In this document: positions 2-15,422 of the stretch, one piece after another
How positions within the stretch are numbered: the stretch's first letter is position 1
How the letters are laid out: the number at the start of each line of letters is the position of its first letter
IMG/VR virus record: IMGVR_UViG_3300032401_001514
Span: 65,629-129,628 of that record
Reading direction: 5' to 3' (one strand)
Source of the DNA: a virus
Length of the DNA: 64,000 bases
Notes under the pieces: model-generated
Databases searched by the model: none
What the model was told of the DNA's origin: nothing
The model's input: only the letters and a program-made list of their open reading frames with translations
Program-made: the position numbers and the translations under genes

Positions 2-409
2 TCCTAAGTATGGATGCCACTCCCAAGATGGATCTGCACCGTAAACCATTCTTGGTATGTTTGAATAATTTACATTATCGAATATTTTATTAGGCAGCAT
101 GGCCCAAGGAGCTGGAAAATATCCATTATGCAAATCTTTCATAGACTCAAAAGCGTCCCTTTTGTCTAAACAAAGCTGTCCATTTGCATTCATTATTTCT
201 CTAAAATCTACACGCGGCCAATCTCTTACCTCAGTAATAGCATCATTAAATTTCAACATATCTAAGTAAGTGTGTTTATCAGCAGAATGATTACAATACC
301 ATATAATCTCTTTACCAGGCCATAATATATCTTTATATTTCAAAACACAAGTACACAACCCAATATCTCCATGTTGTCCATGAACGAAAATTCCAATTTT
401 ATCTGCCAT
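2..409 (-). CDS. Partial CDS running off the left edge; putative GT9-like (heptosyltransferase-type) glycosyltransferase
   Basis: Not in the ORF track; translated by hand. ATG at 409 with SD-like AAGGAG upstream. Reads MADKIGIFVHGQHGDIGLCTCVLKYKDILWPGKEIIWYC... and stays open to position 2. The N-terminal GxxGD resembles GT9. Confidence 0.55.
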   Translation of the reverse strand, partial: MADKIGIFVHGQHGDIGLCTCVLKYKDILWPGKEIIWYCNHSADKHTYLDMLKFNDAITEVRDWPRVDFREIMNANGQLCLDKRDAFESMKDLHNGYFPAPWAMLPNKIFDNVNYSNIPRMVYGADPSWEWHPYLG

Positions 410-418
410 ATACTCTCC

Positions 419-1219
419 TTAAAATCCAGGGCAATCTAAAATAACATTTTTTTCTTGTGCATATTTTTTCACAACTTCTAAAGCGCGCGGCGGAATATGC
501 TCAGTAATTCCACCAATTAAAACATCATGATGCTTCTTACAATGAGCGCAGAAAAATGTATTCAATTTATTTGCTTCACGAAATGATAGGCCGGGCACTG
601 GTTCATCATTTTCCACGTATGATGGAATAGGAACTCCGCCATCATTAAAATAACCATTAACTATTTGTCCTTGGTTATTATATTGAGGGTGACCATAATG
701 AACAATTAAATCATGTGTAATATTTGGGTAAATTTCGTTGGCTAAAAACCCTTGATCATAAGTGTTATCTTTGCTAAATTTTTCTACCATTTCATTCATT
801 TTTGAAAGAATATAATTTCTAACACCCCACATGCCACCCATTATTTTTTGACTATGATAACAATGGTCTCTTATAATATGAAAATTCTTTTTGCCATCAA
901 GCCATTGGTCTACACAAACTTTCTCTCTTGATGATACCCAAGAATCAGCGTCTCTAGATATCATAACGACACCATACTCAGAGGCGGGCAAGAATCTCCA
1001 TAACATAGCTTCGCTGCCACGATGAGTTGGCATAACTACAATTTCTACATGTTCGAATGTTCTAAGAAGTTTTTCTATACACGACGGAATAGTGTCATCA
1101 ATATAAAATCTAGCAATCCAATCAGGATAAATATAAGGGATTAATAAACAATTTATAATTGCGTTAATTGTGTCTTTTGGTCTATTATTGTAAAGTGAGT
1201 AACTTATTATTTTTTTCAT
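419..1219 (-). CDS. Putative glycosyltransferase-like protein (MKKIISYSLY / MLWRF / ISRDAD family)
   Basis: 266 aa with a DAD (DxD) motif after a hydrophobic strand and an IMGGMWG motif; lies inside the GT island. Confidence 0.5.
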   Translation of the reverse strand: MKKIISYSLYNNRPKDTINAIINCLLIPYIYPDWIARFYIDDTIPSCIEKLLRTFEHVEIVVMPTHRGSEAMLWRFLPASEYGVVMISRDADSWVSSREKVCVDQWLDGKKNFHIIRDHCYHSQKIMGGMWGVRNYILSKMNEMVEKFSKDNTYDQGFLANEIYPNITHDLIVHYGHPQYNNQGQIVNGYFNDGGVPIPSYVENDEPVPGLSFREANKLNTFFCAHCKKHHDVLIGGITEHIPPRALEVVKKYAQEKNVILDCPGF

Positions 1220-1229
1220 TAATAACCTC

Positions 1230-1859
1230 TTATAATACGTATGTATCTGCCATTTTCTTTAATGTATCTACTATGTTATCTGGATATAATTTATCTCCAC
1301 ACAGTCTGTGTAATTTGTCCATATTAAAAACAGAGGCATCAACCCACCAATCTTCAAACGGAAGATTTGGTCCCATACCACAACCTAGTGGCACAAGCAC
1401 ATCTGAACATAATAATGAGTAACTATGCCCGCTTAAAATAGCTCTTTCTTCATCTTTAAGTTTATTTCCAAATCTATAAGCGTCATGTTCTATAGTAATA
1501 ACGCTAAATCTATAGTCATTCAATGGTAATATTTTTAATACTTCTGCGCTATTTTCGTCTATATCTATAGATAAATAATCTATTCTTGATGGATATTTTT
1601 CTTTATTTAATATGGTTTTATAATCAATTTTTGTAGCATCATCATTTATAAAATGACAAGTTCTACTTTTATAACCCTCGTTATGATCTAAACTTTTTTC
1701 TACACAAATCCCATGCCATTTTAACTCATCTTCAAAATAATATGAATTACTTGTAGAAATTGCACTAAAACTTCCAATGTCTAAATAATAACCATTACGT
1801 TTAAAATTTAATACATTAGATACAAACTCATCTTGCCACGCCTGTGAATGATATACCAT
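1230..1859 (-). CDS. FkbM-family SAM-dependent methyltransferase
   Basis: Motifs SQAWQDEFV, YYLDIGS, GICVE and IDYLSIDID are typical of FkbM-like methyltransferases. Confidence 0.75.
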   Translation of the reverse strand: MVYHSQAWQDEFVSNVLNFKRNGYYLDIGSFSAISTSNSYYFEDELKWHGICVEKSLDHNEGYKSRTCHFINDDATKIDYKTILNKEKYPSRIDYLSIDIDENSAEVLKILPLNDYRFSVITIEHDAYRFGNKLKDEERAILSGHSYSLLCSDVLVPLGCGMGPNLPFEDWWVDASVFNMDKLHRLCGDKLYPDNIVDTLKKMADTYVL

Positions 1860-1889
1860 TTATTTTCCTTTGTTGTTTATACTAGTTAA

Positions 1890-2666
1890 TTAATAAAAAT
1901 ATTTCAAAAACAAATCCATTCTTTTTTTGTGTCCATCAGCAAATACTGGATTGGCAGCATTCCATTGCGAGCCTGCCATATAATGATAAAACCCTTCGGC
2001 TATCCAGCCAGCACTTAAACCATGTGTTCTGCAAATGTCTAAGTCAGCTTTAAAATACTCAGCGAAAGGCCCTTTGCCTTCTAATGTAGCAAGAAAATAA
2101 GAAGTTTGATGATTAGCCATAAATTTAACTGAATTAGGATTTTTTTCGATAAATGTTTTAGTTTTTCCTCCGGTGTCCAATCCCGTATCTAAACCAAAAT
2201 CTAATTCACGAACATTGTTTAAAAGTTTCATATTAACAATTGTAAAAGCTGGATAAAAATAATTAACGCCCTTGCCATTTAAAATCCTAAACTCGGTAGT
2301 ACTTGCGGCAATGTTGCCAGCTATGATATCCGATATTGATACATCACATATAGGAAACACATCCGAGTGAACAAGAACTATAATCTCACAATTATTATTT
2401 ACAGCATAATTATGTACGGCCCAATTTAATGCTGATGCATAACACTCAGAGGGATTTTGAACAGTATGGATATTTTGAGGTATTCTTACGCAGTTAATAT
2501 TATTATAAGAAGCTATTTCATTAATGTTCTTTTCCATTTTAGAATCAAATGCATCGTTTAATAATACAAAATCAAAATCTTCTTTCATATATTTTTTGAA
2601 CTGTCTATGCATGATATCAAGAGGAAATTTATCATTTACAGCGAAAGAAAGAATAGATATTTTCAT
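1890..2666 (-). CDS. Putative GT-A-fold glycosyltransferase-like protein
   Basis: 258 aa with FVLLND, IIVLVHSDVFP (DxD-like) and FYHYMAGSQW; supported by island context. Confidence 0.45.
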   Translation of the reverse strand: MKISILSFAVNDKFPLDIMHRQFKKYMKEDFDFVLLNDAFDSKMEKNINEIASYNNINCVRIPQNIHTVQNPSECYASALNWAVHNYAVNNNCEIIVLVHSDVFPICDVSISDIIAGNIAASTTEFRILNGKGVNYFYPAFTIVNMKLLNNVRELDFGLDTGLDTGGKTKTFIEKNPNSVKFMANHQTSYFLATLEGKGPFAEYFKADLDICRTHGLSAGWIAEGFYHYMAGSQWNAANPVFADGHKKRMDLFLKYFY

Positions 2667-3559
2667 AAATGCTCCATGTGATTAATAGTATCTATTAAAC
2701 CAGATTCTATTTTTGTAAAAGAAAGGGTTGGCATTATGCCTTTCAAATAATAATTGCTTACGGTTTTTTTAAAGTTTCCATCTTGTTTGCTTGTGTCAAA
2801 TTTAATTTCATTTTTAAATTGTGTTATTTTGCCAATGCATCTTGCTAAATCAGAGATGGTAATTTCCTCATCACTACAACATATGATTGGTTTATCACCA
2901 GAATAATTCATAACTAAATGTTTAATTATTTTAGCTAAATCCATAGAATAAATAAATTGTCTCAAAGGCTTTCCTGTGCCATTAATTACGACATCTGTAT
3001 TTGTTTTATTAGCTTCTTTGAATTTAGAAACCAAACTCGGTATCAATCTGCCAGATTTTATATTATCGTTCGCCCCATAAATATTACAAGGTATAATGCC
3101 AAAATATTTTCTATTATATTGCGCATTGTAATTTTGGCATTGTAACGCAAGCATTCTTTTTGAATAAGCATATCCAGCAAAAGCTCCGGTTAAATTGCTT
3201 TCAAAAATCATAGATTCGTCCATTGGAAATTTTGAAGGCATCTCTGGAAACATATTTACCGACAAACAAAACATTCCATTTTGTATTCCGGCTAAATTTG
3301 AGGCCTCTAATACGTTTTCATTTATTCTAACATTATTCGAAAACGAAGACACTTTGTCAATATTATAAAAACCAGGAACATATGAAGCCAAATGAATAAT
3401 ATAATCTGGACCTATAGTCCTCACCAAATCAATCGTTCGTTCTCTATTAGTTAGATCGCAGTCCTTTCTTTCAATAAAAACCCAATTATCTTCTTCTGAA
3501 CACAAAGACTTTAAAGAACTGCCTACGCATCCGTTGCTGCCTGTAACAAGAATTTTCAT
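2663..3559 (-). CDS. GDP-L-fucose synthase/ColC-like NAD(P)-dependent SDR (GDP-4-keto-sugar reductase)
   Basis: GSNGCVG Rossmann motif, HLAS, catalytic YAYSK, PCNIYG and GTGKPLRQFIYSMDLA; adjacent to colD. Confidence 0.85.
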   Translation of the reverse strand: MKILVTGSNGCVGSSLKSLCSEEDNWVFIERKDCDLTNRERTIDLVRTIGPDYIIHLASYVPGFYNIDKVSSFSNNVRINENVLEASNLAGIQNGMFCLSVNMFPEMPSKFPMDESMIFESNLTGAFAGYAYSKRMLALQCQNYNAQYNRKYFGIIPCNIYGANDNIKSGRLIPSLVSKFKEANKTNTDVVINGTGKPLRQFIYSMDLAKIIKHLVMNYSGDKPIICCSDEEITISDLARCIGKITQFKNEIKFDTSKQDGNFKKTVSNYYLKGIMPTLSFTKIESGLIDTINHMEHL

Positions 3560-4740
3560 GGTTTATAACTCAATAGTATATCGATTAATTCTTCAACTAA
3601 AAAGTCTGGCATCAAGTTACTTGATAGTCCAATAAACAAACCGTGAAAATGACATTGCTCAGCTCCTGGAAAATTTAACGGATTTAAACTTGGATAAAGA
3701 TCCTTAATAACTGGCTGTCTTATAATATTACCAGTAATAATTGGTCTATTTTCAACTCCGTTATTTGTTAGATAAGATAAATAATTTGGTAAAGATACGC
3801 TTTTATCTAAAAACAAAACAATGCCAAACCATATAGCATCGGTGTCCTCGCTTGATTCAGCAAAAGAAAGAAAAGTATTTCTTGGGTCAGTCTCTATTCT
3901 ATATTTAATATAATTGTAATTTATCTTTCTATTATTGTTTTTTTCTTGAAGTTTGTTTAGCTGACTAATGCCCATTGAGGCTTGTATTTCCATCGGTCTT
4001 ACATTATATCCTAAATTAACAAATGTAAATCTAGGATCTAAATCAGGGTATTGTTTTTGTATCTCTTCTTTATTTGTTAGGTTTCTTGACCACCCATGAG
4101 CACGAAGGCACTTCATTAACTCATAACTCTCATCATTATTACATACCACCATGCCTCCCTCCATAGTAGTTAAATGATGAGAATAATAAAATGAATACGT
4201 TCCAATATCTCCAAATGTTCCGAGATATTTAGTTTTGTACTTTGAGCCTAGAGATTCACAAGTATCTTCTATTAAAAGTAAATTATAGCGATTAACAATA
4301 TTCATTAACTTTTCCATGTTAGTAGAGTTTCCTAGAACATGAACAAGCATAATAGCTTTTGTTTTATTCGTAATTTTATTTTCAAGATCTTCTAAATTTA
4401 TATTCAATGTTTTTGAATCTACATCTACAAATATAGGTGTGAGATTTGATTGAATAATTGGGAATACACTAGTAGACCAGCATAAAGCCGGAACCAAAAC
4501 TTCATCGCCAGGCATTAATCTATTAGCACATTTGTAATTAGAAAGAGTAGATAGTGCTATTAAATTAGCTGATGATCCAGAATTTACCATCAGCGCATGT
4601 TTTGCTCCAATATATTCTGCAAATATTTTTTCGAATTCATTTACTTGCTCACCCATAGTAAAATTTTCAGTAAGCAAAGTCTTAACCATCTCTATAATAT
4701 CATTAGAGTCATGAACATTTTGGCCTAATGGAAATTTCAT
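3556..4740 (-). CDS. colD: GDP-4-keto-6-deoxy-D-mannose 3-dehydratase (ColD/WbdK-like, PLP/PMP-dependent DegT family)
   Basis: MVNSGSSAN, EDTCES, LRAHGW, GYNVRP and RPIITGN motifs. SFYYSHHLTTMEGG has His in place of the Schiff-base Lys, the ColD hallmark. Confidence 0.85.
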   Translation of the reverse strand: MKFPLGQNVHDSNDIIEMVKTLLTENFTMGEQVNEFEKIFAEYIGAKHALMVNSGSSANLIALSTLSNYKCANRLMPGDEVLVPALCWSTSVFPIIQSNLTPIFVDVDSKTLNINLEDLENKITNKTKAIMLVHVLGNSTNMEKLMNIVNRYNLLLIEDTCESLGSKYKTKYLGTFGDIGTYSFYYSHHLTTMEGGMVVCNNDESYELMKCLRAHGWSRNLTNKEEIQKQYPDLDPRFTFVNLGYNVRPMEIQASMGISQLNKLQEKNNNRKINYNYIKYRIETDPRNTFLSFAESSEDTDAIWFGIVLFLDKSVSLPNYLSYLTNNGVENRPIITGNIIRQPVIKDLYPSLNPLNFPGAEQCHFHGLFIGLSSNLMPDFLVEELIDILLSYKP

Positions 4741-5804
4741 AATTGGCTCTCAATGCTAGTAAGAATCTGTTTCCAACTTATATAAATTGATTCTTTTCTT
4801 AACACATTATAGTTGGCCATATTATTGCTAATTTCTTTTAAATTTACTGTGTTTAATAGGTGTTGCAAATGAGACTGGGAATCAAAATATTGAACATGTT
4901 TCATGTTTTCTGTATCATAAAAATCACAAGTATCTATCCACATATCTAAAATTTTTGGATTACGTAGACTGTTCGGATTATCTAAATCATCAGGCTCTTT
5001 AACTTTTTCAATTTTATAAAAAGTCAAGTCAGAAAACATTTTATTTTGACAGATAAGTTCTTTGGCATATTGTTTTGAAGGCATAAACAGCGGAACATTT
5101 GCTGTATATTGTTCGAATATAGACATACTGCCATTATGATAAGGCAGATGAATTATACCTTTGTAACTATAAAGATCTTTCCAATCGTATCTCCAAGAAG
5201 CATTTCTAACTGTGCCCAGCCCAACACATAAATTACCGGGCACTGTTATATCTGAGCGATCATGTATAACATATTTATTTTTTGTTCCTGTGTATTTGGC
5301 ATTTGTGTACTCGCATAAATTTGGAATATGCATTCCTAAAATGCCATTCAAATAATGCGAATAATACTGATCTCCTTTGTTATTACAAACATAATATAGT
5401 TTACCTTCATTATGCTTTAGTTTTAAAAAATCATTTAATCTGTCTCTAATTGCTGGAGTAAAAGTATTTGGATGGTCATATCTTACACAATTAACTATTA
5501 TGATTGGCTTATTCCACCTTTCATAAAGCATAGCAAATTCTACTGGATAACACGCAATAAACCCGTCATATTTGCTAAGCTCGTCTTTATTCTGTTCATA
5601 AAACATATCACAGACTTCTTGGGTACAAACCCCTGAACAAGTTAACTGTGTGCCATTGCTAAGCATAATTTGGGACTTTGGTTTGTTCATAACCCAATGA
5701 TGGCCAGATAAAGACCAATCATCAACTTCATGTCCTAAATTTTTGAAAATGTGAGCTATGTCAGAGATGACCGATACATGCTGATCTATATTGAAAAACT
5801 TCAT
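4737..5804 (-). CDS. Hypothetical protein, possibly a GT-B-fold glycosyltransferase
   Basis: 355 aa; the C-terminal YKGIIHLPYHNGSMSIFEQYTANVPLFMP resembles a GT-B nucleotide-sugar-binding segment; island context. Confidence 0.4.
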   Translation of the reverse strand: MKFFNIDQHVSVISDIAHIFKNLGHEVDDWSLSGHHWVMNKPKSQIMLSNGTQLTCSGVCTQEVCDMFYEQNKDELSKYDGFIACYPVEFAMLYERWNKPIIIVNCVRYDHPNTFTPAIRDRLNDFLKLKHNEGKLYYVCNNKGDQYYSHYLNGILGMHIPNLCEYTNAKYTGTKNKYVIHDRSDITVPGNLCVGLGTVRNASWRYDWKDLYSYKGIIHLPYHNGSMSIFEQYTANVPLFMPSKQYAKELICQNKMFSDLTFYKIEKVKEPDDLDNPNSLRNPKILDMWIDTCDFYDTENMKHVQYFDSQSHLQHLLNTVNLKEISNNMANYNVLRKESIYISWKQILTSIESQL

Positions 5805-6460
5805 AACGCTTCTTTTAATGTAATATGTAGTACGCTTTCTTTATCAGTAAAATCATGCCACGTTATTTTTTCTACCTTTGGGTTTGATAGAATAAATTTT
5901 TCTATTTTATCAATAGCATATACATTATGATATAAATCTTCTTCTTCCCAATAGTTAATCTGATCTTCGCCAGCAGCCGTCCATGGCTTTTGTTTTAATG
6001 ATTCTGGTAGTTCGTCATCATATAATGGAATAGAGCCAGGCTTTAAAAACCAAACTATAATTACTTCTTTTTTGCCGATTCTAATAAATTCATTTATTGC
6101 ATTTTCATAATATGACAAATGCTCAACAACTTCCCTACAAAATACACACTCATATGCATTGTCCCCAATTGGCAAAGTGCAATCTAAATCAGCTTCAACC
6201 ATATGAATGCCCTGTGAGGCATTAAAATCTATAAAGTATTTACAGCTGTCAGCCCCAGTATACTTTATATCATAATTGTCATTATACTTATATCCATAAT
6301 ATTCTGTTGCGAAACCGCATCCGCAATCTAAAATGCTTTTATAGTTCTTTTTTATAACATGGTTTCTGCAATAAACTTTATTTGGGTTATTAAAATCTTT
6401 AACCCACCCAAAAAAAGTTTCAAGATTATTTTTTACATTTTTATTCCACCAAGTTGTCAT
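5801..6460 (-). CDS. Class I SAM-dependent methyltransferase
   Basis: Motif I ILDCGCG, acidic motif YTGAD, and CVFCREVVEHL. Confidence 0.8.
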   Translation of the reverse strand: MTTWWNKNVKNNLETFFGWVKDFNNPNKVYCRNHVIKKNYKSILDCGCGFATEYYGYKYNDNYDIKYTGADSCKYFIDFNASQGIHMVEADLDCTLPIGDNAYECVFCREVVEHLSYYENAINEFIRIGKKEVIIVWFLKPGSIPLYDDELPESLKQKPWTAAGEDQINYWEEEDLYHNVYAIDKIEKFILSNPKVEKITWHDFTDKESVLHITLKEAL

Positions 6461-7188
6461 ATTTTATTCCACGTAATAGGAGTTAAATTTTTTGTATTAT
6501 GTTGTAATTTTGGCCCAAACCAATTTTTTGGCGCAATTATTTTTTTATTAGTGTTTTTGTTTAAATACGCCGCCCACCACGAATAACTACTATTAGCTAT
6601 AATATTATTTTCGCACGACGACATTAAAGACATATCAATATGCGGCTCATTGCCTTCTATAAAAACAAATTTATCGCCCTTGAATTTTTCTTTGCACCAA
6701 TTTATATCATCAGAAAACACAAAATAACAATCAGATTTGATAATATTCATTGCTTCTTCATAATAACTTGTATTTGCTAAATCTGTATAATAAGAATTGC
6801 CAAGTTTAGTATAATCACCTCTTCTTATATGCATAGAGGTAACGCCTGTATTTTCAGGAAAACATTGTTTATATTCAAACAATGTTTTTATTTCTTTTTC
6901 ATATTCTTTAAAATATAATTCTGATTGATAATACCCAGATAAATTCAAATTTGGTTGATATGGAATTGTAGCATAATGAAAAAATGGCTCGACATATGTT
7001 TTAGAATATTGTATGGTTTCTTTTGTGAATTTGTCATCGGGGATATTAAAATGCTCTCTGTCTTTCCAATTATCAGGAAAAATATAATCATCATTATTTT
7101 TTAAAGCCGTAGCAATTGTCGCTGCCGCCTGAAAAAGACAATTTCCAGTCCTGCCACAATTTCCAAAATCTAAATATGTAACAACCAT
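6457..7188 (-). CDS. GT11 alpha-1,2-fucosyl/colitosyl-transferase
   Basis: GRTGNCLFQ, LSGYYQSELYF, HIRRGDY, FVFSDD and IIANSSYSWWAAYL are the canonical GT11 motifs. Confidence 0.92.
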   Translation of the reverse strand: MVVTYLDFGNCGRTGNCLFQAAATIATALKNNDDYIFPDNWKDREHFNIPDDKFTKETIQYSKTYVEPFFHYATIPYQPNLNLSGYYQSELYFKEYEKEIKTLFEYKQCFPENTGVTSMHIRRGDYTKLGNSYYTDLANTSYYEEAMNIIKSDCYFVFSDDINWCKEKFKGDKFVFIEGNEPHIDMSLMSSCENNIIANSSYSWWAAYLNKNTNKKIIAPKNWFGPKLQHNTKNLTPITWNKI

Positions 7189-9974
7189 TATGTTCTTATT
7201 TTTTCATGATGTTTTTCTAATAACAATATTATTGGATCGAAATTATCGCTTTTCCATAAATGTTTGAATTTTTCAATGTTTTGCGGGTAATGATAGCTTG
7301 GGCTTAATGATAAAGGAGCGTGATCTAAGAAATATCTATTTATAGCCGTTTCGTCATGCCATAATGGAATTATACCGTTTTTAACATCTTGTTCTATTTT
7401 AGATGCGCACCACTCGGAAAGCTCTAAATATTTATCCTTTCTGCCACCGCTAAACCCGCCTCCATAATAATAAGTATATTTATCAGACGGTGTATATAAA
7501 CAAGAGCTTGTATTTGTTTCAAATGTGCCGCCGCCATGATAATAACCACAATGTCTTACACCAACTAAATCACCAAGAGTCTCACCAGAAACTCTATTTA
7601 TAAACAGGCAGTCAGCATCAATATAGTACAAATAATCCATGTCATTAAATATTTCTTTATTTTCGCTGAAATATTTAAACCTATTCATACTAGCAAAAGG
7701 AAATGGAACATGCTCTATATGAACTTGTTTAACACTTCTTGTTGTTAATATATCTTGAGTTTCGTCAGAAAATACAAAATATGACACCTCTGAGTCGGCA
7801 TTATTGAAAAAATATCTATCGGCTGACGAAATCAACGGGGCAATAAAAGATTGATATTTTGATGTGCCTATAATTATCAATCCAATTTTATGTTTAATTT
7901 CTTGTTTTTTATTTTCAACTGAGGTTTTGTTATATTTAGTTTTTCTTCTTATTAAACCATCCAAGCTAGCTTGTAACTGTTTATTAACTTTATGATCGTT
8001 TATTGGATTTTGAAGATTATAAGTATATAAAGCTTCGCTTATAAATTTCGAATGAATTCCAGACATTTCTAACATTGGATACATAATGGCCAGATCCCAT
8101 GTCATAGCGAAAAACTTTCCATCATTATTAATTAAGTCATTTTTATTTATCTTTTTAAATAACCAGGCATAGAAAGTTCTCAAATGTGAAGAACACCATG
8201 TAAAAGATCTATATGTATTTGATTGTGTAATTTTATCAGGAATTTGTTGTGATACGCCGAGCGCTCCATCTGGATAATTTTGATATTGCCCATAAGTTAA
8301 CCATATGTCTTTGTTTTTATAAACATTATTTAAATAATTCAAGACATTTTCGTTTGATAACCAATCATCTCCATCCAATGTTAAAATTATTTCATCATCA
8401 GCGCAACTATGTATTGCATTATACAAATTTTCTAAAGCGCCAAGACGATTTATATTTTTAACAATAATTGTTTTTATATTGCCTTTATATTTGTCTATAA
8501 TTTCACGGGCTTTAATAAACGTTTTATCAGATGAACAATCGTCAATATATATAATTCTATAGTTTACGTAATTTTGTTGTATTGCAGAACGTAAATTATT
8601 TTCCACCCATTGCTCATTATTATAACTAGGAATAACAATAACAAACTTTTTATCTTTACCAACAGATAAATTAATATTATCACTTAACGGCACGTTACTT
8701 AATGTATTTAATATAATCGGATTCTGTATTATATTATCTGTATTATAATTAAAATTAACTGGTTGATAAAAAAGTGCTGCATTTATTTTTGCTGTCGGTA
8801 CTGCTGCTACCGCCGTTGCTGATGCGTTTTTTATACCATTTATTAATTTAATACGCTCAACAAATAATTCGCCAACTGAATTTGACCCTCTACTTATTTT
8901 TATTTTATAACTAGCTGCTGGACTTCCTGATTTAAGTTTAAAAAATAATTCAGATTTTTTTTGATGTGCTAACAATGTTATAACACTTTTTATATTATTA
9001 TCATCATCAATAATACTAACTTCTAATTTCCCATTCCCGTTTATTTTATTAGCAGTGATAACAACTACATATTCAAAATCAGGCTGTATAGTTGTAATTG
9101 GTATGCAAAAAGAAGAGCCTCTTGGCATAATGATACCATTTGCCACATTAGATAATGATCCAACAACAGACCCGAAGGCGTTTATGTTTAAACCGCTTTG
9201 TGATGAATCGTACATAATAGATGATACAAATATATTGTTTGTTATTACTTGTGAAAATGTCTTATTTTTAATTAATTCATTTGGCGACTTGTTAGAATTA
9301 ATATCATAATTTGTTGTAATCGTTGGCGGAGACTCCATATTACGATACATTGGCTCAGAATGTATTTTATCTAAACTCGACAATTTAATATCAAGTATTT
9401 CACATGGTATCATAAATTTTATAAATCCGTCTTTATTAACAATTACATTAGGAGGCTGGGTAATTATAGATTCAATATTAGATGATTTTAAACTGCCTCC
9501 CTCTGATGCGAATAATTTGTTTTTTACTATCCTTACATTTTTACAAGGCTCACATTGTGCTATAATATTTCGCCAACTCATTGATTTAACCACTTCTTCA
9601 TCTTGCATTATTTCTATATCCTCATTAGTTTCAATAATTATTCCAGATATTAATATCTTTCCAAATGTTCCAGGCTGTCGCATAATTTTAATTTTATCAT
9701 ATGATGTTGGAACTTGTATTGTTTCTTCATGCATTGAAGAAAACTTTGTATTAATATGAGATGATTCAGTTGCTATTATTATAGTGCCATTGCCAGATAA
9801 ACGCCGTCCTTTAAAAGTAATACATTTTGCTATATTATTAAAATCCGAAAAATCAAAACTAACACTACCTGATGGTTCTATTTCAATGGATCCATCAGAT
9901 ATATATCTACAAGAGCGTATAGAAGATACGTATTGTTTTAAATCATTGGCTGCTATTTCATATTTTTTATTCAT
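7188..9974 (-). CDS. Multidomain glycosyltransferase: N-terminal duplicated beta domain + GT2 + GT6 (ABO-type alpha-1,3-GalNAc/Gal transferase)
   Basis: GT2 at about 8655-7950 (IVIPSYN, IDDCSSD, LDGDD). GT6 at about 7890-7190 (IIIGTSKY, YLYYIDAD, YYYGGGFSGG, WHDETAINRYF, LSPSYHYP). Confidence 0.85.
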   Translation of the reverse strand: MNKKYEIAANDLKQYVSSIRSCRYISDGSIEIEPSGSVSFDFSDFNNIAKCITFKGRRLSGNGTIIIATESSHINTKFSSMHEETIQVPTSYDKIKIMRQPGTFGKILISGIIIETNEDIEIMQDEEVVKSMSWRNIIAQCEPCKNVRIVKNKLFASEGGSLKSSNIESIITQPPNVIVNKDGFIKFMIPCEILDIKLSSLDKIHSEPMYRNMESPPTITTNYDINSNKSPNELIKNKTFSQVITNNIFVSSIMYDSSQSGLNINAFGSVVGSLSNVANGIIMPRGSSFCIPITTIQPDFEYVVVITANKINGNGKLEVSIIDDDNNIKSVITLLAHQKKSELFFKLKSGSPAASYKIKISRGSNSVGELFVERIKLINGIKNASATAVAAVPTAKINAALFYQPVNFNYNTDNIIQNPIILNTLSNVPLSDNINLSVGKDKKFVIVIPSYNNEQWVENNLRSAIQQNYVNYRIIYIDDCSSDKTFIKAREIIDKYKGNIKTIIVKNINRLGALENLYNAIHSCADDEIILTLDGDDWLSNENVLNYLNNVYKNKDIWLTYGQYQNYPDGALGVSQQIPDKITQSNTYRSFTWCSSHLRTFYAWLFKKINKNDLINNDGKFFAMTWDLAIMYPMLEMSGIHSKFISEALYTYNLQNPINDHKVNKQLQASLDGLIRRKTKYNKTSVENKKQEIKHKIGLIIIGTSKYQSFIAPLISSADRYFFNNADSEVSYFVFSDETQDILTTRSVKQVHIEHVPFPFASMNRFKYFSENKEIFNDMDYLYYIDADCLFINRVSGETLGDLVGVRHCGYYHGGGTFETNTSSCLYTPSDKYTYYYGGGFSGGRKDKYLELSEWCASKIEQDVKNGIIPLWHDETAINRYFLDHAPLSLSPSYHYPQNIEKFKHLWKSDNFDPIILLLEKHHEKIRT

Positions 9975-10720
9975 TCATCTTTGTATGGAATATATATTGA
10001 TTTCTGTTTAGTCATGTAAAGCCTTGAATTTTCATAAAATTTTGGCAAATTTTCCTTATGATGCTTATTTTTAAACTCTCTGTACTCCCCTATATCATTT
10101 TCGCCTTCGCCAATATGCTTTCCCATCTCTTTTATGTATCCTAGTTGATGCCCTAATACCCTGGCGCGCATGCCAAAATCTGCGTCCTCATGTGCGTAGG
10201 TTTTATATTCAGTATTAAAGAACCCCAGCATCTTATGTAAACTCTTTGGGAAAACCATGCAGGCTGTCCCTAGATTGCCCTGTGGCTTTCTTTGGAATTC
10301 CTTGCCGCCCTCGGACACCAACCCATACGCAGAGCCCTCCATATTGACTCCTATCATCGCGTATTTGGGATTTGCTTTAAGAATAGCTATACATTCGTCA
10401 AGCCATCCATCCGGCACCAGAATATCATTATCAATCGTTGCGTACCAAGAAGTATCTAAATTATCAGCCAATAATAATGCCTGGTTCCTACCAATAGCTA
10501 TTCCTTTATTTTCATTATTATATTGGCATACAATTTTGCCACCATCATATTTATTAACTAATTCGGATAAATATTGTTTGGTATCATCGGTAGAACCATT
10601 ATCAACAATAGCCAGGTTATAAGGTTGTTTTGTATTTATTAATATGTTATTTATTGTTTGTTTGGTAAGCTCTAATCTGTTATATGTTACCATCATTAAT
10701 GTAGCAATATCTTCTTTCAT
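9971..10720 (-). CDS. GT2-family glycosyltransferase
   Basis: MVTYNR, IVDNGSTD, NKGIAIGRN, TIDND and HEDADFGMR motifs. Confidence 0.88.
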   Translation of the reverse strand: MKEDIATLMMVTYNRLELTKQTINNILINTKQPYNLAIVDNGSTDDTKQYLSELVNKYDGGKIVCQYNNENKGIAIGRNQALLLADNLDTSWYATIDNDILVPDGWLDECIAILKANPKYAMIGVNMEGSAYGLVSEGGKEFQRKPQGNLGTACMVFPKSLHKMLGFFNTEYKTYAHEDADFGMRARVLGHQLGYIKEMGKHIGEGENDIGEYREFKNKHHKENLPKFYENSRLYMTKQKSIYIPYKDE

Positions 10721-11691
10721 TTAATCTCCGAAAAAACAGATAATGGAGTTAACATACCTGGCTTAGCAATAAACATTGGCGGACCATTATCGTCTTTAAA
10801 AACAAACTTCTTATTTTTGGTTAAACTAAATTCACCCTCTTGTTTCAAAGCTATTATTTTTGCCTTAGATATCAGGAGTGACATCAGCAATATATCAATC
10901 TCGTTTGCCATTATTGCTTTTGCGAATGGTAATACGTACAAAATATAATCAAGCCTCATTGGTAATAGATGCAGCTTCATTCCATAATATTGAGATTCAT
11001 TTTGCGTGCATATCACAAGCTCAATTCCAGATTGGTGCAACATCGCGGCTAATGATTTGACTTGCTGTGATGTCCATTCTAGACAATTGTTTTTGTGATT
11101 TGACCATCCAGTATGGCTTGGTACAATAAAAACAAATGGCTTATTTAAAAAAAACTTATCACGTTTGGCCCAGTTTTCAAATTCAGATATTGTTATTTTA
11201 TTCCTCATTTTTGGAACGTAATTTGTGTTCCATTCAACTAATGAGTTCTCGAAAATTTGTTTAATAACAGCTCGTTGATCATGATATCCAAATTTGTTAT
11301 AACAAGTAAACACAGATATATAATTATTAAGATAATTAAAAAATACAAATTTGTTTTTATCCATAAATAACGGAGTTGTATATTCTTTTAAAGTTTGTTC
11401 ATTAATATTTGCATTTAATATATTTGCTAAACCATTTGAGCGAACTATATAATTAAAACGATTATCACCTATCCAATGAAGTTTTTTATTTGGACTTAGA
11501 TTGTTTATTGTTTCCAAAATCGTTAAAGACATAAATGATTCGAATAAGCCTCCGAACCCAGCTACTACAACTTCTTTGTTATCTAAAGCTTTGTTCCATG
11601 ATACACCGTCTATTTTTGGAATTATATATCTGCCATTTTTAACGTGCCATGGAACAGATGGAGCAAATGGAAAATACTTAATCGATGACAT
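10717..11691 (-). CDS. Hypothetical protein, possibly a divergent GT9-like protein
   Basis: 324 aa; N-terminal GFGGLFESFMSL and PFVFIVP...W segments loosely resemble GT9; island context. Confidence 0.35.
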   Translation of the reverse strand: MSSIKYFPFAPSVPWHVKNGRYIIPKIDGVSWNKALDNKEVVVAGFGGLFESFMSLTILETINNLSPNKKLHWIGDNRFNYIVRSNGLANILNANINEQTLKEYTTPLFMDKNKFVFFNYLNNYISVFTCYNKFGYHDQRAVIKQIFENSLVEWNTNYVPKMRNKITISEFENWAKRDKFFLNKPFVFIVPSHTGWSNHKNNCLEWTSQQVKSLAAMLHQSGIELVICTQNESQYYGMKLHLLPMRLDYILYVLPFAKAIMANEIDILLMSLLISKAKIIALKQEGEFSLTKNKKFVFKDDNGPPMFIAKPGMLTPLSVFSEIK

Positions 11692-12505
11692 TGTATTTTG
11701 GATTTTTAATATATGAATCGTGATCTATTTGATATAGAGGGCTTCCGTTTTTCCACCAACGCTTTTTAAAACAACCAACGTTATGACTCATAAACATTTT
11801 ATTAACAGGATTTAGTTTTAATGTAGCGCTTTCTTCATGAGTTATTTTTGTTTCGCCAGCGTAAACAATTTTCTCATCCTTACCTATACGTAAACACAGA
11901 TCGATATCTTCAAAAGCCCAGTTTAAATCTTCGCACATGCCGCCAGCTCGTTTAAAACTAGAAACCTTCATTAAACATACAGCGGCAGTTACGGCCTGAA
12001 AATATCTGTCTGCATAAGAAGCTGCATCCGCTTCTTCATGACGCCTATAGTGCCATGGCATTTTACCATACTGATTGCTAAAAATTACTCCGGCATGTTG
12101 TAATTTATTATCATTATCCATAAGTTTAGCACCAACAACAGCTGCATTAGTTTTCTTCATTAAATTCCACATTTTTAATAAAGATACTTCTTCGTTAAAT
12201 ATCACATCATTATTCAAAAGTAAAATTAAATCATCATCATTTGGATCAGCTTGTTTAAATAAATAATTAACACATGTGGCAAAATTATCTCTATTATGAC
12301 CTGCTTCATACAGATTTAATTCGGATTGTTCCCACAAAGGTGTTGATAATATTGCTTTAGTATTATCTTTTGACCCATTATCTCTTACGTGCCATATAAA
12401 ATCCATATCATTTTTAAGTTGGATAAAATTTTGTTTCAATCCATATTGTAACTTTTGTAATTTTTGCTCACCATTCCAAGTTAATGTTAATGCATGTAAT
12501 TTCAT
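11678..12505 (-). CDS. GT2-family glycosyltransferase
   Basis: LTLTWN, VRDNGSKD, LLLNNDV, QHAGV, AVTAAVCL and FEDIDLCLR motifs. Confidence 0.88.
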   Translation of the reverse strand: MKLHALTLTWNGEQKLQKLQYGLKQNFIQLKNDMDFIWHVRDNGSKDNTKAILSTPLWEQSELNLYEAGHNRDNFATCVNYLFKQADPNDDDLILLLNNDVIFNEEVSLLKMWNLMKKTNAAVVGAKLMDNDNKLQHAGVIFSNQYGKMPWHYRRHEEADAASYADRYFQAVTAAVCLMKVSSFKRAGGMCEDLNWAFEDIDLCLRIGKDEKIVYAGETKITHEESATLKLNPVNKMFMSHNVGCFKKRWWKNGSPLYQIDHDSYIKNPKYNVID

Positions 12506-12699
12506 AATAGTTCCAGTAAATTTCTAACAACAAGGAATATAGCTATTGCACACCCAATTATTCCAGAACCAAACATAATATGCAGTCCGTCATAAGTGCT
12601 AATGCTTGGACCTAATGATATCAAAAATCCTATTAATATCCCGTATAACGGATATAGAAAATAGGAAACAGATTTTAAGAAGATGTCTTTGAAAGCCAT
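12502..12699 (-). CDS. Small putative two-TM membrane protein
   Basis: 65 aa with two hydrophobic stretches; its stop overlaps the next start (ATGA-type). Its 5' end overlaps the upstream GT2 by 25 nt. Confidence 0.45.
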   Translation of the reverse strand: MAFKDIFLKSVSYFLYPLYGILIGFLISLGPSISTYDGLHIMFGSGIIGCAIAIFLVVRNLLELL

Positions 12700-13409
12700 T
12701 TGTTTACAAAAATAGTTCGTGCATTTAAATATAGCTCGGATATATTTAATTTTTTACTGGTCATCTTGCCAAAATGAATTACCGGAACTGGAACAATTTG
12801 CGTTGGTATACCGGCGTCCCTGGCCCTGAATCCCAAATCCGTATCTTCAAAATAACAAAAAAATTCTTCGCTAAATATTTCATTATCAGAAATGTCTAGT
12901 TTCTTCCAAGTCTCTTTAGAAGCAGTAATACACCAACCAGACATATAAGAATTGCCATCTAAATTTGTATTTGCTTCTTTAACAAAATTTAAATTATTAT
13001 CTAACTGTCCCATGGTCGGCCCAACAATAGCGCCGTAACCATTAATAATATCATTTTTAGCTGCTGCAATTAATGGCTGTGTCCATGTTTTATAGTTGTC
13101 CTGCACTCTGACATCATTGTTTAAAAACATTGCATACTGGCCTTTTGATGCCTTAAAACCCTTATTGCAAGCTTTACCGAATCCTTCGTTGATTTCGTTT
13201 CTAATATAACGAAATCCACCAGGCAATATTGGTCCGCCAGAACCATCAAAAAACATTGTGGTTAACATCATTTCAGTATCATCAGTGCTGCCATTATCAA
13301 CAATAATCACTTCGTGATCATCAGGTAATTCTGACAAATCTTTTAATGTAGCTTTGGTGAGGTTCCAGTTGTTAAAAACCGGTATTATAATACTTAATTT
13401 AATGGTCAT
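12675..13409 (-). CDS. GT2-family glycosyltransferase
   Basis: SIIIPVFN, IVDNGSTD, GFGKACNKG, MFLNNDV and YFEDTDLGFR motifs. Confidence 0.9.
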   Translation of the reverse strand: MTIKLSIIIPVFNNWNLTKATLKDLSELPDDHEVIIVDNGSTDDTEMMLTTMFFDGSGGPILPGGFRYIRNEINEGFGKACNKGFKASKGQYAMFLNNDVRVQDNYKTWTQPLIAAAKNDIINGYGAIVGPTMGQLDNNLNFVKEANTNLDGNSYMSGWCITASKETWKKLDISDNEIFSEEFFCYFEDTDLGFRARDAGIPTQIVPVPVIHFGKMTSKKLNISELYLNARTIFVNKWLSKTSS

Positions 13410-13891
13410 TTTTGCTCTTTATTTTTAATAATCCATTCTTTCCAGCATTTATCGTTAGCATCTTTACAGAAGCCACTGATGTCATCCGCTATGTGTTTCT
13501 TACAATTCTTACATTTTGCAAACGAGGCGATCTCATTTAACTTTTCCATAATGAGTTTATCTTCTTCTTCAAGAATTGAAGCAGCCCCTGAGCTAGCTGC
13601 CGTTTCTTCATACATGGCATGCCGCTTAGACATTTTAATTCGTCTTGCGGCTCTTAACAACAATAAGCAACAAATTAAATCAAGCTCTTCCTCATGAGTT
13701 GGATAACCAGATGCTATTTTTGTAATGTTTAGATCAGCAAACATTGCAATTCTTTCCTCAATAGAAAGATAAGAATATGTATTACATTCGTCTAATTCAT
13801 CAATTTTCTTTTGTATATATTTATTTAATCTATCACATTCGCTAGCAGCCTCAGCAAGAATGCCAATCTGTACATTTATATCTTCTTTCAT
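13406..13891 (-). CDS. Hypothetical protein with C-terminal CxxC...C (possible Zn-binding)
   Basis: 161 aa; ATGA overlaps with both neighbours. Confidence 0.6.
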   Translation of the reverse strand: MKEDINVQIGILAEAASECDRLNKYIQKKIDELDECNTYSYLSIEERIAMFADLNITKIASGYPTHEEELDLICCLLLLRAARRIKMSKRHAMYEETAASSGAASILEEEDKLIMEKLNEIASFAKCKNCKKHIADDISGFCKDANDKCWKEWIIKNKEQK

Positions 13892-14304
13892 TTGTGTCCT
13901 TTTAATCTTTGATGTAAATCTTCCTCATACTCATGCACGCGCCAACCAAACTTATTAATTCTAGCCTGAGCCTCTTCCATATCAATCGGTCTTAGTCCAT
14001 CAGCATCTCCAATTGATATAAAGTATGGTTTAAATGATTTTGTAAAAGAATCAAATTCGCCGCATGCTTTCCATGCTGGCTTCCAATTTCTTAAACGAAA
14101 ATAATCATCCGTGTATTGTTTAATTGATCCTAATATATTTTCTTTTATTAAAGGCGTGTATGGTTGATTCACGAATTCTTTGCTTATTCTAATTATTCCG
14201 TCAATAAATGTTTCGTTTTCTGGATTAATACCTTTATCAATAGTATTAAATATGCTATCATAAAAATAAGGAGTTTGATATATTATTTTATTACTCATTG
14301 ACAC
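13888..14304 (-). CDS. Hypothetical protein
   Basis: 138 aa, tightly packed in the operon. Confidence 0.6.
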   Translation of the reverse strand: MSMSNKIIYQTPYFYDSIFNTIDKGINPENETFIDGIIRISKEFVNQPYTPLIKENILGSIKQYTDDYFRLRNWKPAWKACGEFDSFTKSFKPYFISIGDADGLRPIDMEEAQARINKFGWRVHEYEEDLHQRLKGHK

Positions 14305-15383
14305 AATCCTATTATTTGATCAACAATCTTATCCCATGTTAAACGCGCTAGTTGCTCTTGCATATTGGGACGGAACTTATTCATTAAATCATCATAGTTG
14401 CCTACTGCAAGCTTTAATTTACTAGCAGCATCCTCAATGCTTGGTTCGAACGTCTTGGCATAAGGAGATGGAACCCAATATTGCATTTTCTTTGGCGCTC
14501 TAACCTCTTTGCCTTCTATAAGCAACGAATTGTTTTCGTTCATATATTCAAGCTGTCCTCCCCAATTAGGAGCTATTACCAAGTTGTTTGTAGCCATACC
14601 CTCTAATCCAGGCAACCAAAAGCACTCTGCGTGAGTAGCTGAGAACACGATATCGCAGGCATTATACAAAGGAACCATGCTATCTAAGAACTTTGTAATA
14701 ATTTCTACCTCAGCATGATCAGGATATTTCTTACAAAATGTATTATAAATATCCCAAAAATCAACAACAAAAGAACGCAGATTATTTGTGGTTTTATTTA
14801 TGCTTATTTTAACTACCAAACAAACATCATCTTTTTTTGTAAAAGCTTTTCCGAATGATTCTAATAAACCATCTATATTTTTTCTAACATGAGGTTGAGC
14901 AATATTGGCAAGTATCTTATATTTCTTTTTTGTATTAAGCTTATATATTTCTTTTGATGAATATTCTTCTGTATTAATTCCGTGTGGCACAACAACCATA
15001 TGTTCTTTCGGAACGCCGTTACTACTATATATAGATTCCATAAATTTAGAGCTTGGCAATAATTTATCGGTTGCTTTATAATATTTAGCAAACCCTGGCG
15101 GCAAAACAGTTGTTTCGTAATTCCAAATACCAAATCTATTTTTTGTTCCATGAGATAAATAACCTGCAAAATTTCTCATAGCCGTATAACTAATTTGCAT
15201 ATCGTAATTATTATCTAATTTTTCATTTATATATGGCTTTAAATCTAATGGAAATAAATCGTAACCATTTGTAGATTTTAAATGAACTTCGTGATTTTTC
15301 TTAATTAAAGCTCTAGCTATATTTTGTCCAACAATTGACCAAGAATGATTCTGAGATAAAAATTGTTCCATACATACTTTCAT
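14295..15383 (-). CDS. GT4-like (GT-B, retaining) glycosyltransferase
   Basis: IWNYETT, VVPHGIN, RKNIDGL, AECFWLPGLEGMA (E-x7-E) and APNWGGQLEY motifs. Confidence 0.88.
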   Translation of the reverse strand: MKVCMEQFLSQNHSWSIVGQNIARALIKKNHEVHLKSTNGYDLFPLDLKPYINEKLDNNYDMQISYTAMRNFAGYLSHGTKNRFGIWNYETTVLPPGFAKYYKATDKLLPSSKFMESIYSSNGVPKEHMVVVPHGINTEEYSSKEIYKLNTKKKYKILANIAQPHVRKNIDGLLESFGKAFTKKDDVCLVVKISINKTTNNLRSFVVDFWDIYNTFCKKYPDHAEVEIITKFLDSMVPLYNACDIVFSATHAECFWLPGLEGMATNNLVIAPNWGGQLEYMNENNSLLIEGKEVRAPKKMQYWVPSPYAKTFEPSIEDAASKLKLAVGNYDDLMNKFRPNMQEQLARLTWDKIVDQIIGLCQ

Positions 15384-15408
15384 AAAATGAATAGTATTAA
15401 AATAATTT

Positions 15409-15422
15409 TTGCTCGAAATATT
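15409..15422 (-). promoter_or_regulatory. Copy of recurrent intergenic motif AATATTTCGAGCAA (candidate late promoter), upstream of the glycan island
   Basis: Similar motifs occur in three other intergenic gaps on the coding strand; this copy is about 26 nt upstream of the GT4 ATG. Confidence 0.4.

Follow-up and report, generated by a model that had tools for sequence, protein, structure and literature searches.

An island of 25 tightly packed minus-strand genes for the synthesis of a complex glycan was found beside the tail genes of an uncultured huge phage, in IMG/VR virus record IMGVR_UViG_3300032401_001514. The stretch analysed (the window) comprises 64,000 nucleotides, positions 65,629 to 129,628 of that record, and the glycan island covers 21.9 kb, from −6529 to 15383 in window coordinates. 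It appears to be a phage-encoded glycan assembly line that would operate wholly in the cytoplasm, and sequence comparison with related phages indicates a conserved four-gene core into which a horizontally mobile accessory cassette of about 18 genes has been inserted. The best reading of its target, to which we give an even chance, is the phage's own virion, with the glycan carried by tail, baseplate and fibre proteins.

Organisation of the glycan island

The window is the right half of one 129,628-bp contig that is about 30% complete according to CheckV, and the phage is therefore a huge phage with a genome of roughly 430 kb; its closest complete relative measures 458,729 bp. A first-pass annotation, made from the letters of the window, had noticed about 18 co-oriented and mostly overlapping genes behind a 39-nt gap, and this layout was borne out in detail. 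In the window, 18 minus-strand open reading frames (ORFs) run from 15383 down to position 2, 14 of their 17 junctions overlap by 1-25 nt and the other three are gaps of 9, 10 and 30 nt, and the distance between the last tail gene, which encodes a 982-aa protein (tail982), and the first island gene, g01, is exactly 39 nt (15384-15422). The proposed extent of at least 15 kb was also right, the island continuing past the window edge with seven further genes on the same strand that are separated by overlaps or by gaps of at most 24 nt. Upstream of the island in the direction of transcription are genes for a tail sheath, a baseplate wedge protein (phrog_6, E 3e-32), a 2234-aa protein (tail2234) and tail982, and downstream on the same strand are a tubulin/TubZ-like gene and genes for UvsW helicase, DnaB, a sigma factor and ribonucleotide reductase. 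GC content is slightly lower in the island (31.8% vs 35.6%). Recent capture from a high-GC host was rejected, as the GC at third codon positions of the island genes (0.14-0.34) scatters about 0.24, the mean of the tail block. When 50,697 phage records were queried by Megablast, the island found no match.

A fixed core and a mobile cassette in related phages

A probe with tail982 found one IMG/VR relative in which the slot holds a GT4-like glycosyltransferase (GT) gene, a GT2 gene, a gene of unknown function, a second GT2 gene and an RmlB-like gene. Tubulin and UvsW come next, and the genes that border the slot are 48-53% identical to ours; tubulin as a single-protein probe of IMG/VR returned no locus. 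When an alignment of two g01 proteins was used as the IMG/VR query, 23 loci on contigs of up to 458 kb were obtained. The order tail2234, tail982, sometimes extra genes, and g01 is kept in 22 of these 23 related contigs, with g25, tubulin and UvsW following wherever the contig extends far enough, and the four-gene core of g01, g04, g06 and g25 sits in the same slot in the same proportion of contigs. Between them the slot holds from 5 to 34 genes, the distance from g01 to tubulin varies from 4.7 kb to 26.8 kb, and the gap between the tail gene and g01 measures 2-85 nt. A chimeric assembly join near 15400, which the first-pass annotation had entertained, was rejected, since the same junction recurs in 22 independent contigs. 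The tubulin/TubZ/PhuZ-like gene directly after the island (L005:5732-7135; G000:C1:57732-59135) is conserved in position throughout the clade, at 50-62% identity.

A search with g12 revealed two more clade members, G013 and G014, the latter 428,320 bp long, with terminal repeats and 100% complete. Both have a minimal core locus beside the tail genes and, about 160-170 kb away, a cassette that runs from g09 onward and in G014 reaches as far as g23. The cassette genes of these two phages are mostly 65-78% identical to ours (46-57% for g09 and g10), whereas the backbone, represented by g01, g04, g06, g25, tubulin and tail982, is only 37-59% identical, and 37-46% in G014. It is because cassette identity is far above backbone identity, and because the cassette stands at an unlinked site in G013 and G014, that the cassette is regarded as horizontally mobile. 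Sub-cassettes move too, as L011 has the same cassette in collinear order minus ColD (g13) and g14. The expectation that the island would stay linked to structural genes in related phages thus holds for the core but not for the accessory cassette, which is remote in two clade members.

Genes other than those of our island fill the slot elsewhere. The 46 variable genes of four relatives (L030-L035) include extra methyltransferases, aminotransferases, two polysaccharide pyruvyl transferases and one formyltransferase, as well as a GT29 sialyltransferase-family protein with CTP_transf_3 and DAHP-synthase-like and DHDPS-like enzymes, and by these family matches some clade members probably add 3-deoxy-D-manno-octulosonic (KDO)- or sialic-type acids.

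Glycosyltransferases and the predicted glycan terminus

Classification of the ORFs with Pfam, PHROG, NCBIfam, PDB and Foldseek supported seven GT proteins with eight catalytic domains (g01, g04, g06, g08, g09 with two, g10 and g12; Table 1). The list in the first-pass annotation was essentially right, and its GT11, GT6, four GT2 domains and GT4-like protein were all recovered, but its count of about ten GT or GT-like proteins was too high and its GT9-like protein is reduced to the faint hint in g07. GT2 matches in the whole contig are four only, namely g04, g06, g08 and the GT2 domain of g09. A hydropathy scan found no clear transmembrane segment in any of the GTs, as had been remarked of the recognisable ones, and inventory and hydropathy together support the earlier idea of a large pathway of soluble enzymes for a complex glycan.

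The product of g01, the hallmark core gene of the clade and a candidate initiating transferase, has homologues in more than 1000 clusters, on contigs of up to 486 kb. In tblastn against the 50,697 phage records (E≤1e-5) it matched 110 Streptomyces phages and one Microcystis phage at about 24% identity and no Mycobacterium phage; the neighbourhood of the Streptomyces-phage homologue was examined and was uninformative.

The most elaborate of the GTs is the fusion protein g09. Modelling of its residues 1-440 with AlphaFold2 (AF2), followed by Foldseek, resolved residues 1-380 into three beta-sandwich domains with CBM51, CBM22 and Cry/Vip-type modules as structural neighbours; with a pLDDT (the confidence score of the model) of 66 and low TM-scores (the measure of structural similarity), their likeness to carbohydrate-binding modules (CBMs) refers to the fold class only. 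This N-terminal part resembles no other protein of the contig, and its Atlas matches were within the noise range. The GT6 domain matches the family profile PF03414 at 116 bits (cut-off 25), and its closest PDB match is BoGT6a of Bacteroides ovatus (4AYJ, E 5.5e-35), followed by the human ABO transferases at about 1e-26. Aligned to BoGT6a, it has the DxD motif DAD where BoGT6a has NAN, and it keeps the WHDE catalytic segment with the catalytic Glu. By sequence the domain accordingly has what CAZy describes for GT6, the family profile, DxD (or NxN) and the Glu in WHDE. Its donor-specificity loop contains small residues only, as in GalNAc-transferring members, and from what is established for GTA, GTB and BoGT6a this would point to GalNAc. 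Together with the adjacent GT11 (g10), the small-residue loop suggests Fuc-alpha-1,2-Gal as acceptor and UDP-GalNAc or UDP-Gal as donor. Since GT11 adjoins GT6, and Gmd and a complete Fcl are encoded in the island, a fucosylated, A-antigen-like glycan terminus is the most economical prediction from these sequences. No match to g10 was found among PDB sequences. GT6 has phage precedents, namely annotated copies in cyanophages P-SSM2, P-SSM5 and ACG-2014f and a GT2-GT6 fusion in uncultured phages of 630-640 kb.

The Pfam-less protein g12 is, from its AF2 model, assigned to a new GT-B family. All of its 50 top Foldseek matches are GT-B transferases, its profile found nothing in PDB, and it has 334 homologues with up to 85% identity, some of them fused to a methyltransferase (a g11-g12-type fusion, e.g. 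P0121). Searches of PDB with the g07 profile and with the profile of a further family (A7) also found nothing.

Sugar-donor enzymes and the predicted pathway

The two methyltransferases (g11 and g16) and two nucleotide-sugar enzymes (g13 and g14) that had been counted within the window were confirmed by Pfam, and with g19 beyond the window edge the island has three methyltransferases. In g13 the active-site His of the S-H-H motif, which takes the place of the pyridoxal phosphate-binding lysine, is conserved in the alignment to 2GMS. Aligned to human GDP-fucose synthase 4B8W, g14 keeps the Ser/Tyr/Lys triad, and Asn replaces the epimerase Cys and Arg the epimerase His. Of the GDP-L-colitose pathway, therefore, Gmd and a ColD with its His are encoded, and the ColC/Fcl-type partner with a Cys/His pair is not matched by g14. 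Because g14 lacks both epimerase residues and retains the reductase triad, the g13 and g14 pair suggests GDP-3,6-dideoxy-D-hexose as product rather than L-colitose.

The pathway had been called self-contained, and this did not hold, as neither our own fragment nor the closest complete relative encodes a sugar-nucleotidyltransferase, an enzyme that certain other members of the clade do have. The pathway would therefore draw on sugars activated by the host, starting from host GDP-mannose, NDP-glucose and UDP-sugars. Gmd and Fcl would convert host nucleotide sugars to GDP-L-fucose, Gmd together with ColD and the non-epimerising reductase would give a GDP-3,6-dideoxyhexose, and the RmlB-like dehydratase with the C-methyltransferase may supply branched or 6-deoxy sugars. 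From these donors at least seven soluble GTs, with eight catalytic domains, would build a heteroglycan to be decorated by the three methyltransferases, and the adjacent GT11 and DxD-type GT6 would probably cap the chain with Fuc-alpha-1,2 and GalNAc-alpha-1,3 in a blood group A-like structure. Gene content, catalytic residues, synteny, the lack of export genes and the mobility of the cassette are what the sequences show; the identities of the sugars, the order of the steps and above all the acceptor are what we infer.

Genes for membrane steps

Profile searches covered our own fragment and three to four relatives at least 92% complete (92-100%), with positive control genomes unless otherwise stated. 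The initiating polyprenyl-phosphate transferases (PF02397, Bac_transf, and PF00953, WecA/MraY type), Wzx (PF01943), the Wzy_C/O-antigen ligase/PglL family (PF04932), the ABC-2 permease (PF01061, ABC2_membrane), GtrA (PF04138) and the PMT_2 GT-C family (PF13231) were all absent from the fragment and the near-complete relatives, and a hydropathy scan of the 129.6-kb contig showed no protein with more than five transmembrane-like segments. The absence of Wzx/Wzy, ABC exporter and GtrA type genes, noted at first for the window, thereby extends to near-complete members of the clade. As judged from these profiles, the island has the sugar genes and several transferases of a Wzx/Wzy- or ABC-type O-antigen or capsule locus and lacks the initiator, the flippase, polymerase and ligase, and the exporter. 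Nor does it resemble a GtrABC-type seroconversion system, GtrA and GT-C being absent and the GT2 proteins being without transmembrane segments.

Target of the glycan

In the reading preferred here the chain would be joined to tail, baseplate or fibre proteins inside the infected cell before lysis, with g01 as the likely first, protein-directed transferase. The phage's own proteins are the most likely carrier because a lipid-carrier initiator, flippase, polymerase, ligase, exporter and periplasmic transferase are absent in the clade. The fixed slot of the core after the last tail gene, the extreme diversity of glycan genes between related phages and the CBM-like modules fused to g09 are likewise in favour of the virion. 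Precedents for it come from mycobacteriophages and above all from the Megavirinae.

A possible attachment site was sought in the tail proteins, where Asp-Gly-Tyr (DGY) is the most over-represented tripeptide, with 29 copies observed in the tail block (window 15423-62692) and 2.0 expected. The copies cluster without extended flanking context and form runs, for example at residues ~1199-1212 of the 2234-aa protein. Island-adjacent tail orthologues of 22 relatives (L007-L029) hold 270 copies vs 15.1 expected, and neighbouring non-tail proteins of the same relatives 15 vs 9.8, so that in this phage and the 22 relatives the excess in tail-block proteins is 15-18 times expectation. Among the tail982 orthologues 134 copies fall in 26 alignment columns, some of these columns being common to 18 of 21 sequences. 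The DGY tag is therefore genuine, with positions that are in part conserved; any connection with glycosylation is conjectural. The full scheme in which a strain-variable coat of methylated deoxy-sugars on tail, baseplate and fibre, ending in a blood-group-A mimic, is primed by g01 on the Tyr of DGY throughout the clade is rather doubtful. If it were true, it would be a phage counterpart of giant-virus fibril glycosylation and would bring a new protein-glycosylation sequon.

The regulation of the island was approached through the 39-nt gap. Scans for sigma-70 promoters and intrinsic terminators gave results not above shuffled sequence. In a k-mer test of intergenic DNA, read in the orientation of the downstream gene, no word was more enriched than TCGAG, which occurs in 9 gaps vs 0.74 expected; GTCGAG/TCGAGC is enriched about 20-fold in intergenic DNA, often after an A/T-rich run. 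TCGAG precedes the start codon by 16-79 nt at genes in the tRNA, metabolic and replication parts of the genome, and it occurs in 0 of 11 virion-block gaps, which carry ATATAG-like words instead. Genome-wide TCGAG is under-represented, with 50 copies vs roughly 140 expected from base composition by our own estimate, and it is absent from 23 kb of the relative L006 (0 vs 6.6 expected). Because L006 has none and the gap between tail gene and g01 measures 2-85 nt in the relatives, TCGAG is taken from these sequences to be a lineage-specific word; it is a candidate promoter for one temporal class of phage genes. A separate signal of the non-structural type probably serves the island, possibly in addition to read-through from the tail gene. 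Early or middle expression is compatible with either the virion or the host envelope as target, and early timing would be no refutation of virion glycosylation.

Several points weigh against the virion. GT11, GT6, GT2 and GT4 homologues normally use undecaprenyl-linked acceptors in O-antigen and capsule loci, and do so without transmembrane anchors too, so that the solubility of the transferases does not discriminate. Tubulin and replication genes follow the island directly on the same strand, which makes adjacency to the tail and shared orientation weak evidence, and in G013 and G014 the accessory cassette stands far from the tail genes. The gap before g01 carries TCGAG, and because this word is elsewhere seen before non-structural genes only, it is probably too simple to see the island as the last part of the late operon. 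DGY could be a structural or Ca-binding turn instead, some of its columns being positionally conserved (up to 18/21). Our own genome is, moreover, only about 30% complete. Similar phage regions have been interpreted as serving host O-chain modification (PMC7029224, PMC7824862).

Such remodelling of the host envelope is the strongest competitor, possible and yet less probable than glycosylation of the virion. The phage enzymes would here extend or replace an undecaprenyl-linked O-antigen or capsule unit at the inner membrane face, and the host initiator, flippase and ligase would display the product. This would exclude superinfecting competitors or keep progeny from re-adsorbing in the course of a long infection. 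GT6 (with BoGT6a), GT11, ColD (with WbdK of E. coli O55), Gmd and Fcl are indeed closest to bacterial surface-polysaccharide enzymes, and the locus is O-antigen-like, with conserved ends, a variable middle and slightly lower GC. The TCGAG word common to the island and non-structural genes, the unlinked cassette and the published reading for host recognition clusters of pelagimyophages and cyanomyophages and for clusters of jumbo cyanophages also argue for it (PMC7029224, PMC7824862). However, the genes for membrane steps are not found in near-complete clade members, the glycans of islands of 5 to 34 genes would each need to pass the specificity of the host Wzx, Wzy and ligase, and the core is fixed beside the tail genes in 22 of 23 contigs. 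Seroconverting phages known to us use GtrABC, acetyltransferases or Wzy variants, and we know of none with a large soluble-only cluster, which also counts against the host envelope.

The absence of export genes would also suit a soluble product that accumulates until lysis, such as a free oligo- or polysaccharide, or a small molecule or host protein that has been glycosylated, acting in the cell or on release, e.g. as receptor decoy or osmolyte, and the GT-B fold of g12 is as similar to natural-product glycosyltransferases as to GT4. Genes for aglycone biosynthesis are however absent from the island, and the conserved tail-side position of the core and the clade-wide DGY tag would be left unexplained; a product of this kind is considered improbable. 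That the transferases put sugars on a modified base of the genome for evasion of restriction is hardly credible, even if phage clusters that add mono- to trisaccharides to 5-hydroxymethylcytosine exist, sometimes near structural genes (bioRxiv 10.1101/2023.12.21.572611). A ThyA-family hydroxymethylase (PF00303) is absent from our own fragment, in a genome about 30% complete, and from the closest complete relative, and Tet/JBP (PF12851) gave no match, with the control also silent. GT11 and GT6 use glycan acceptors, and the eight transferase domains, together with three methyltransferases and four routes to deoxy sugars, go far beyond known DNA glycans. TCGAG is under-represented, not protected, in our genome and in L006.

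Comparison with known systems

In organisation, not by homology, the island is most like the glycosylation clusters of the Megavirinae (Mimivirus, Moumouvirus, Megavirus and Tupanvirus), which comprise 6-33 genes of clade-specific content in a conserved slot (Notaro et al. 2022, PMC10117803). In both a variable cluster of sugar and transferase genes lies between conserved genes and combines virus-encoded nucleotide-sugar routes, many GTs, methyl and pyruvyl transferases and rare deoxy or amino sugars of bacterial type, and cellular export is unused. The Megavirinae are however eukaryote-infecting Nucleocytoviricota whose fibril glycans have been chemically solved, whereas ours is a tailed phage known from genes alone, and their loci have no orthology to our island at the sequence level. 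Virion glycosylation has been demonstrated for mycobacteriophages Che8, Corndog and Myrna (Freeman et al. 2023, as summarised in PMC12363180 and PMC12619734). As far as these summaries describe it, soluble phage GTs modify virion proteins in the cytoplasm there, as is proposed for ours, with few transferases and host sugars as opposed to 25 genes with rare-sugar routes of their own; glycosylation is demonstrated in one case and predicted from genes in the other, and, as reported above, g01 has no Mycobacterium phage homologue at E≤1e-5.

Further parallels among phages are the host recognition cluster of pelagimyophages and cyanomyophages (Zaragoza-Solas et al. 2020, PMC7029224) and, in jumbo cyanophages, clusters labelled 'capsular polysaccharide modification' (Iyer et al. 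2021, PMC7824862); the authors propose a change of the host O-chain. These too are hypervariable regions beside tail-fibre genes, in large myophages, rich in GTs and deoxy-sugar enzymes, and GT6 also occurs in P-SSM2 and ACG-2014f, but they belong to other phage lineages, ours being tubulin-bearing huge phages with a four-gene core separable from a mobile cassette. With blood-group-like synthesis in E. coli O86 and Bacteroides ovatus (GT11 of WbnK type, GT6 of WbnI/BoGT6a type) the island shares the combination of Gmd, Fcl, GT11 and GT6 and the conserved WHDE. Where BoGT6a has NxN, the GT6 of g09 has DxD, and it forms one protein with GT2 and three beta-sandwich domains. In comparison with the GDP-colitose pathway of E. 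coli O55 (Gmd, ColD and ColC), our ColD matches WbdK at 7.5e-82 with the catalytic His kept, but the ColC-like g14 lacks both epimerase residues. Unlike the E. coli O86 and O55 and B. ovatus loci, our island has no Wzx/Wzy or initiating transferase.

GT-rich variable regions beside the fibre genes of large phages and virion glycosylation in other viruses have already been described. New are the distinction between core and mobile cassette in huge phages of a very widespread clade, the absence of export genes across near-complete relatives, the fusion of a DxD GT6 with GT2 and beta-sandwich domains, the g12 GT-B family and the putative regulatory word before the island. If the glycan is on the particle, tailed phages, like giant viruses, would run an autonomous and rapidly swappable glycosylation of O-antigen-like complexity, with consequences for host recognition, resistance to proteases and predators, and lectin or immune perception; if it is on the host envelope, the island would surpass in size all known lytic-phage systems that re-dress cells. 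The minimal four-gene core set, g01, the DxD GT6 fusion, g12, and ColD with the non-epimerising reductase provide testable handles, the last three being enzymes whose substrates can be predicted.

Other features of the locus

The remaining island genes g02, g03, g05, g07, g15, g17, g18, g20 and g24 gave nothing usable in searches of Pfam (at E up to 5), PHROGs and NCBIfam. The short g05 is the sole ORF in the window part of the island with transmembrane-like segments in the hydropathy scan. Coordinates of all features are shown in Table 1.

Table 1. Genes and sites of the glycan island and its surroundings, in window coordinates unless a contig is named.
Feature	Description	Position	Strand	Support
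g01	GT-B, GT4/GT1-like GT; core gene	14295..15383	-	phrog_2170 E 3e-31; below Pfam threshold, orthologue of a relative above it
g02	138-aa ORF	13888..14304	-	no Pfam/PHROG match; no BLAST match in relatives
g03	161-aa ORF	13406..13891	-	no Pfam/PHROG match; not found in relatives
g04	GT2; core gene	12675..13409	-	PF00535 E 7.6e-23; orthologues at 35-55% identity in most relatives
g05	65-aa ORF, two transmembrane-like segments (hydropathy)	12502..12699	-	no family match; not found in relatives
g06	GT2; core gene	11678..12505	-	PF00535 E 1.6e-06; orthologues in relatives at 36-51% identity
g07	324 aa, conserved in the expanded-island subclade	10717..11691	-	faint GT9 hint only, PF01075 E 0.033
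g08	GT2	9971..10720	-	PF00535 E 2.3e-19
g09	928-aa protein in which three N-terminal beta-sandwich (CBM-like) domains are fused to GT2 and GT6	7188..9974	-	Pfam GT2 E 1.7e-16, GT6 E 1.9e-33
g10	GT11 (alpha-1,2-fucosyltransferase family)	6457..7188	-	PF01531 E 1.5e-23
g11	Class I S-adenosylmethionine methyltransferase	5801..6460	-	PF08241 (Methyltransf_11) E 8.7e-09
g12	Pfam-less 355-aa GT of predicted GT-B fold; strongly conserved, virus-dominated family	4737..5804	-	AF2 pLDDT 91.9; Foldseek; Atlas lead
g13	DegT family, ColD-type GDP-4-keto-6-deoxy-D-mannose 3-dehydratase	3556..4740	-	PDB 2GMS E 7.5e-82
g14	Epimerase family, Fcl/ColC-like reductase	2663..3559	-	human GDP-fucose synthase 4B8W E 2.2e-56
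g15	258 aa, conserved cassette gene	1890..2666	-	orthologues at 61-70% identity in L011, L037, L038; no family match
g16	FkbM-family methyltransferase	1230..1859	-	PF05050 E 1.4e-05
g17	266 aa, conserved cassette gene	419..1219	-	orthologues at 61-78% identity; no family match
g18	Conserved cassette gene for 298 aa, of which the N-terminal 136 lie in the window; full gene L005:13141-14037	2..409	-	
g19	Sugar C-methyltransferase	left of window	-	PF08484 E 4e-45
g20, g24	Family-less genes	left of window	-	
g21	DUF4254	left of window	-	
g22	Gmd	left of window	-	TIGR01472 at 425 bits (NCBIfam equivalog cut-off 415)
g23	Fcl with all five catalytic residues, epimerase Cys/His pair included	left of window	-	
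g25	RmlB-like NDP-glucose 4,6-dehydratase; core gene, followed by tubulin	left of window	-	328 bits
tail982	982-aa last tail/baseplate-side gene, upstream border of the island	15423..18371	-	Pfam Dockerin_1 E 2.4e-07; orthologues precede the island in relatives; 9 DGY tripeptides
39-nt gap before g01	TCGAG(C) 33 nt upstream of the start codon	15384..15422	-	candidate promoter/regulatory word of the non-structural gene class
Further TCGAG positions (examples)		G000:C1 6755, 8222, 9042, 17979, 25186, 29330, 46286, 56180		
~330-aa protein	Conserved protein of minimal islands	L006:15047-16033; orthologues L014, L016, L017, L018, L023, L025, L026, L029; G001:C1:191432-192394		

Inside the minimal islands a conserved protein of ~330 aa was observed, with an N-terminal transmembrane helix, a coiled coil and a beta-rich C-terminal part and without a Pfam or PDB match. 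Homology with g07 was rejected (hhalign probability 0.2), and the ~330-aa protein was dropped as a candidate glycan acceptor, as this clade gene is located elsewhere where islands are expanded. In L018 and L019 an ORF of 699 aa, about twice the length of g25, matches g25 and is presumably a fusion to a second sugar-modifying domain. Dockerin-type Ca-binding repeats are present in tail982 at residues ~590-660 (window 16400-16600), and these could bind a cohesin-like protein of the host surface or could simply be EF-hand-like loops.

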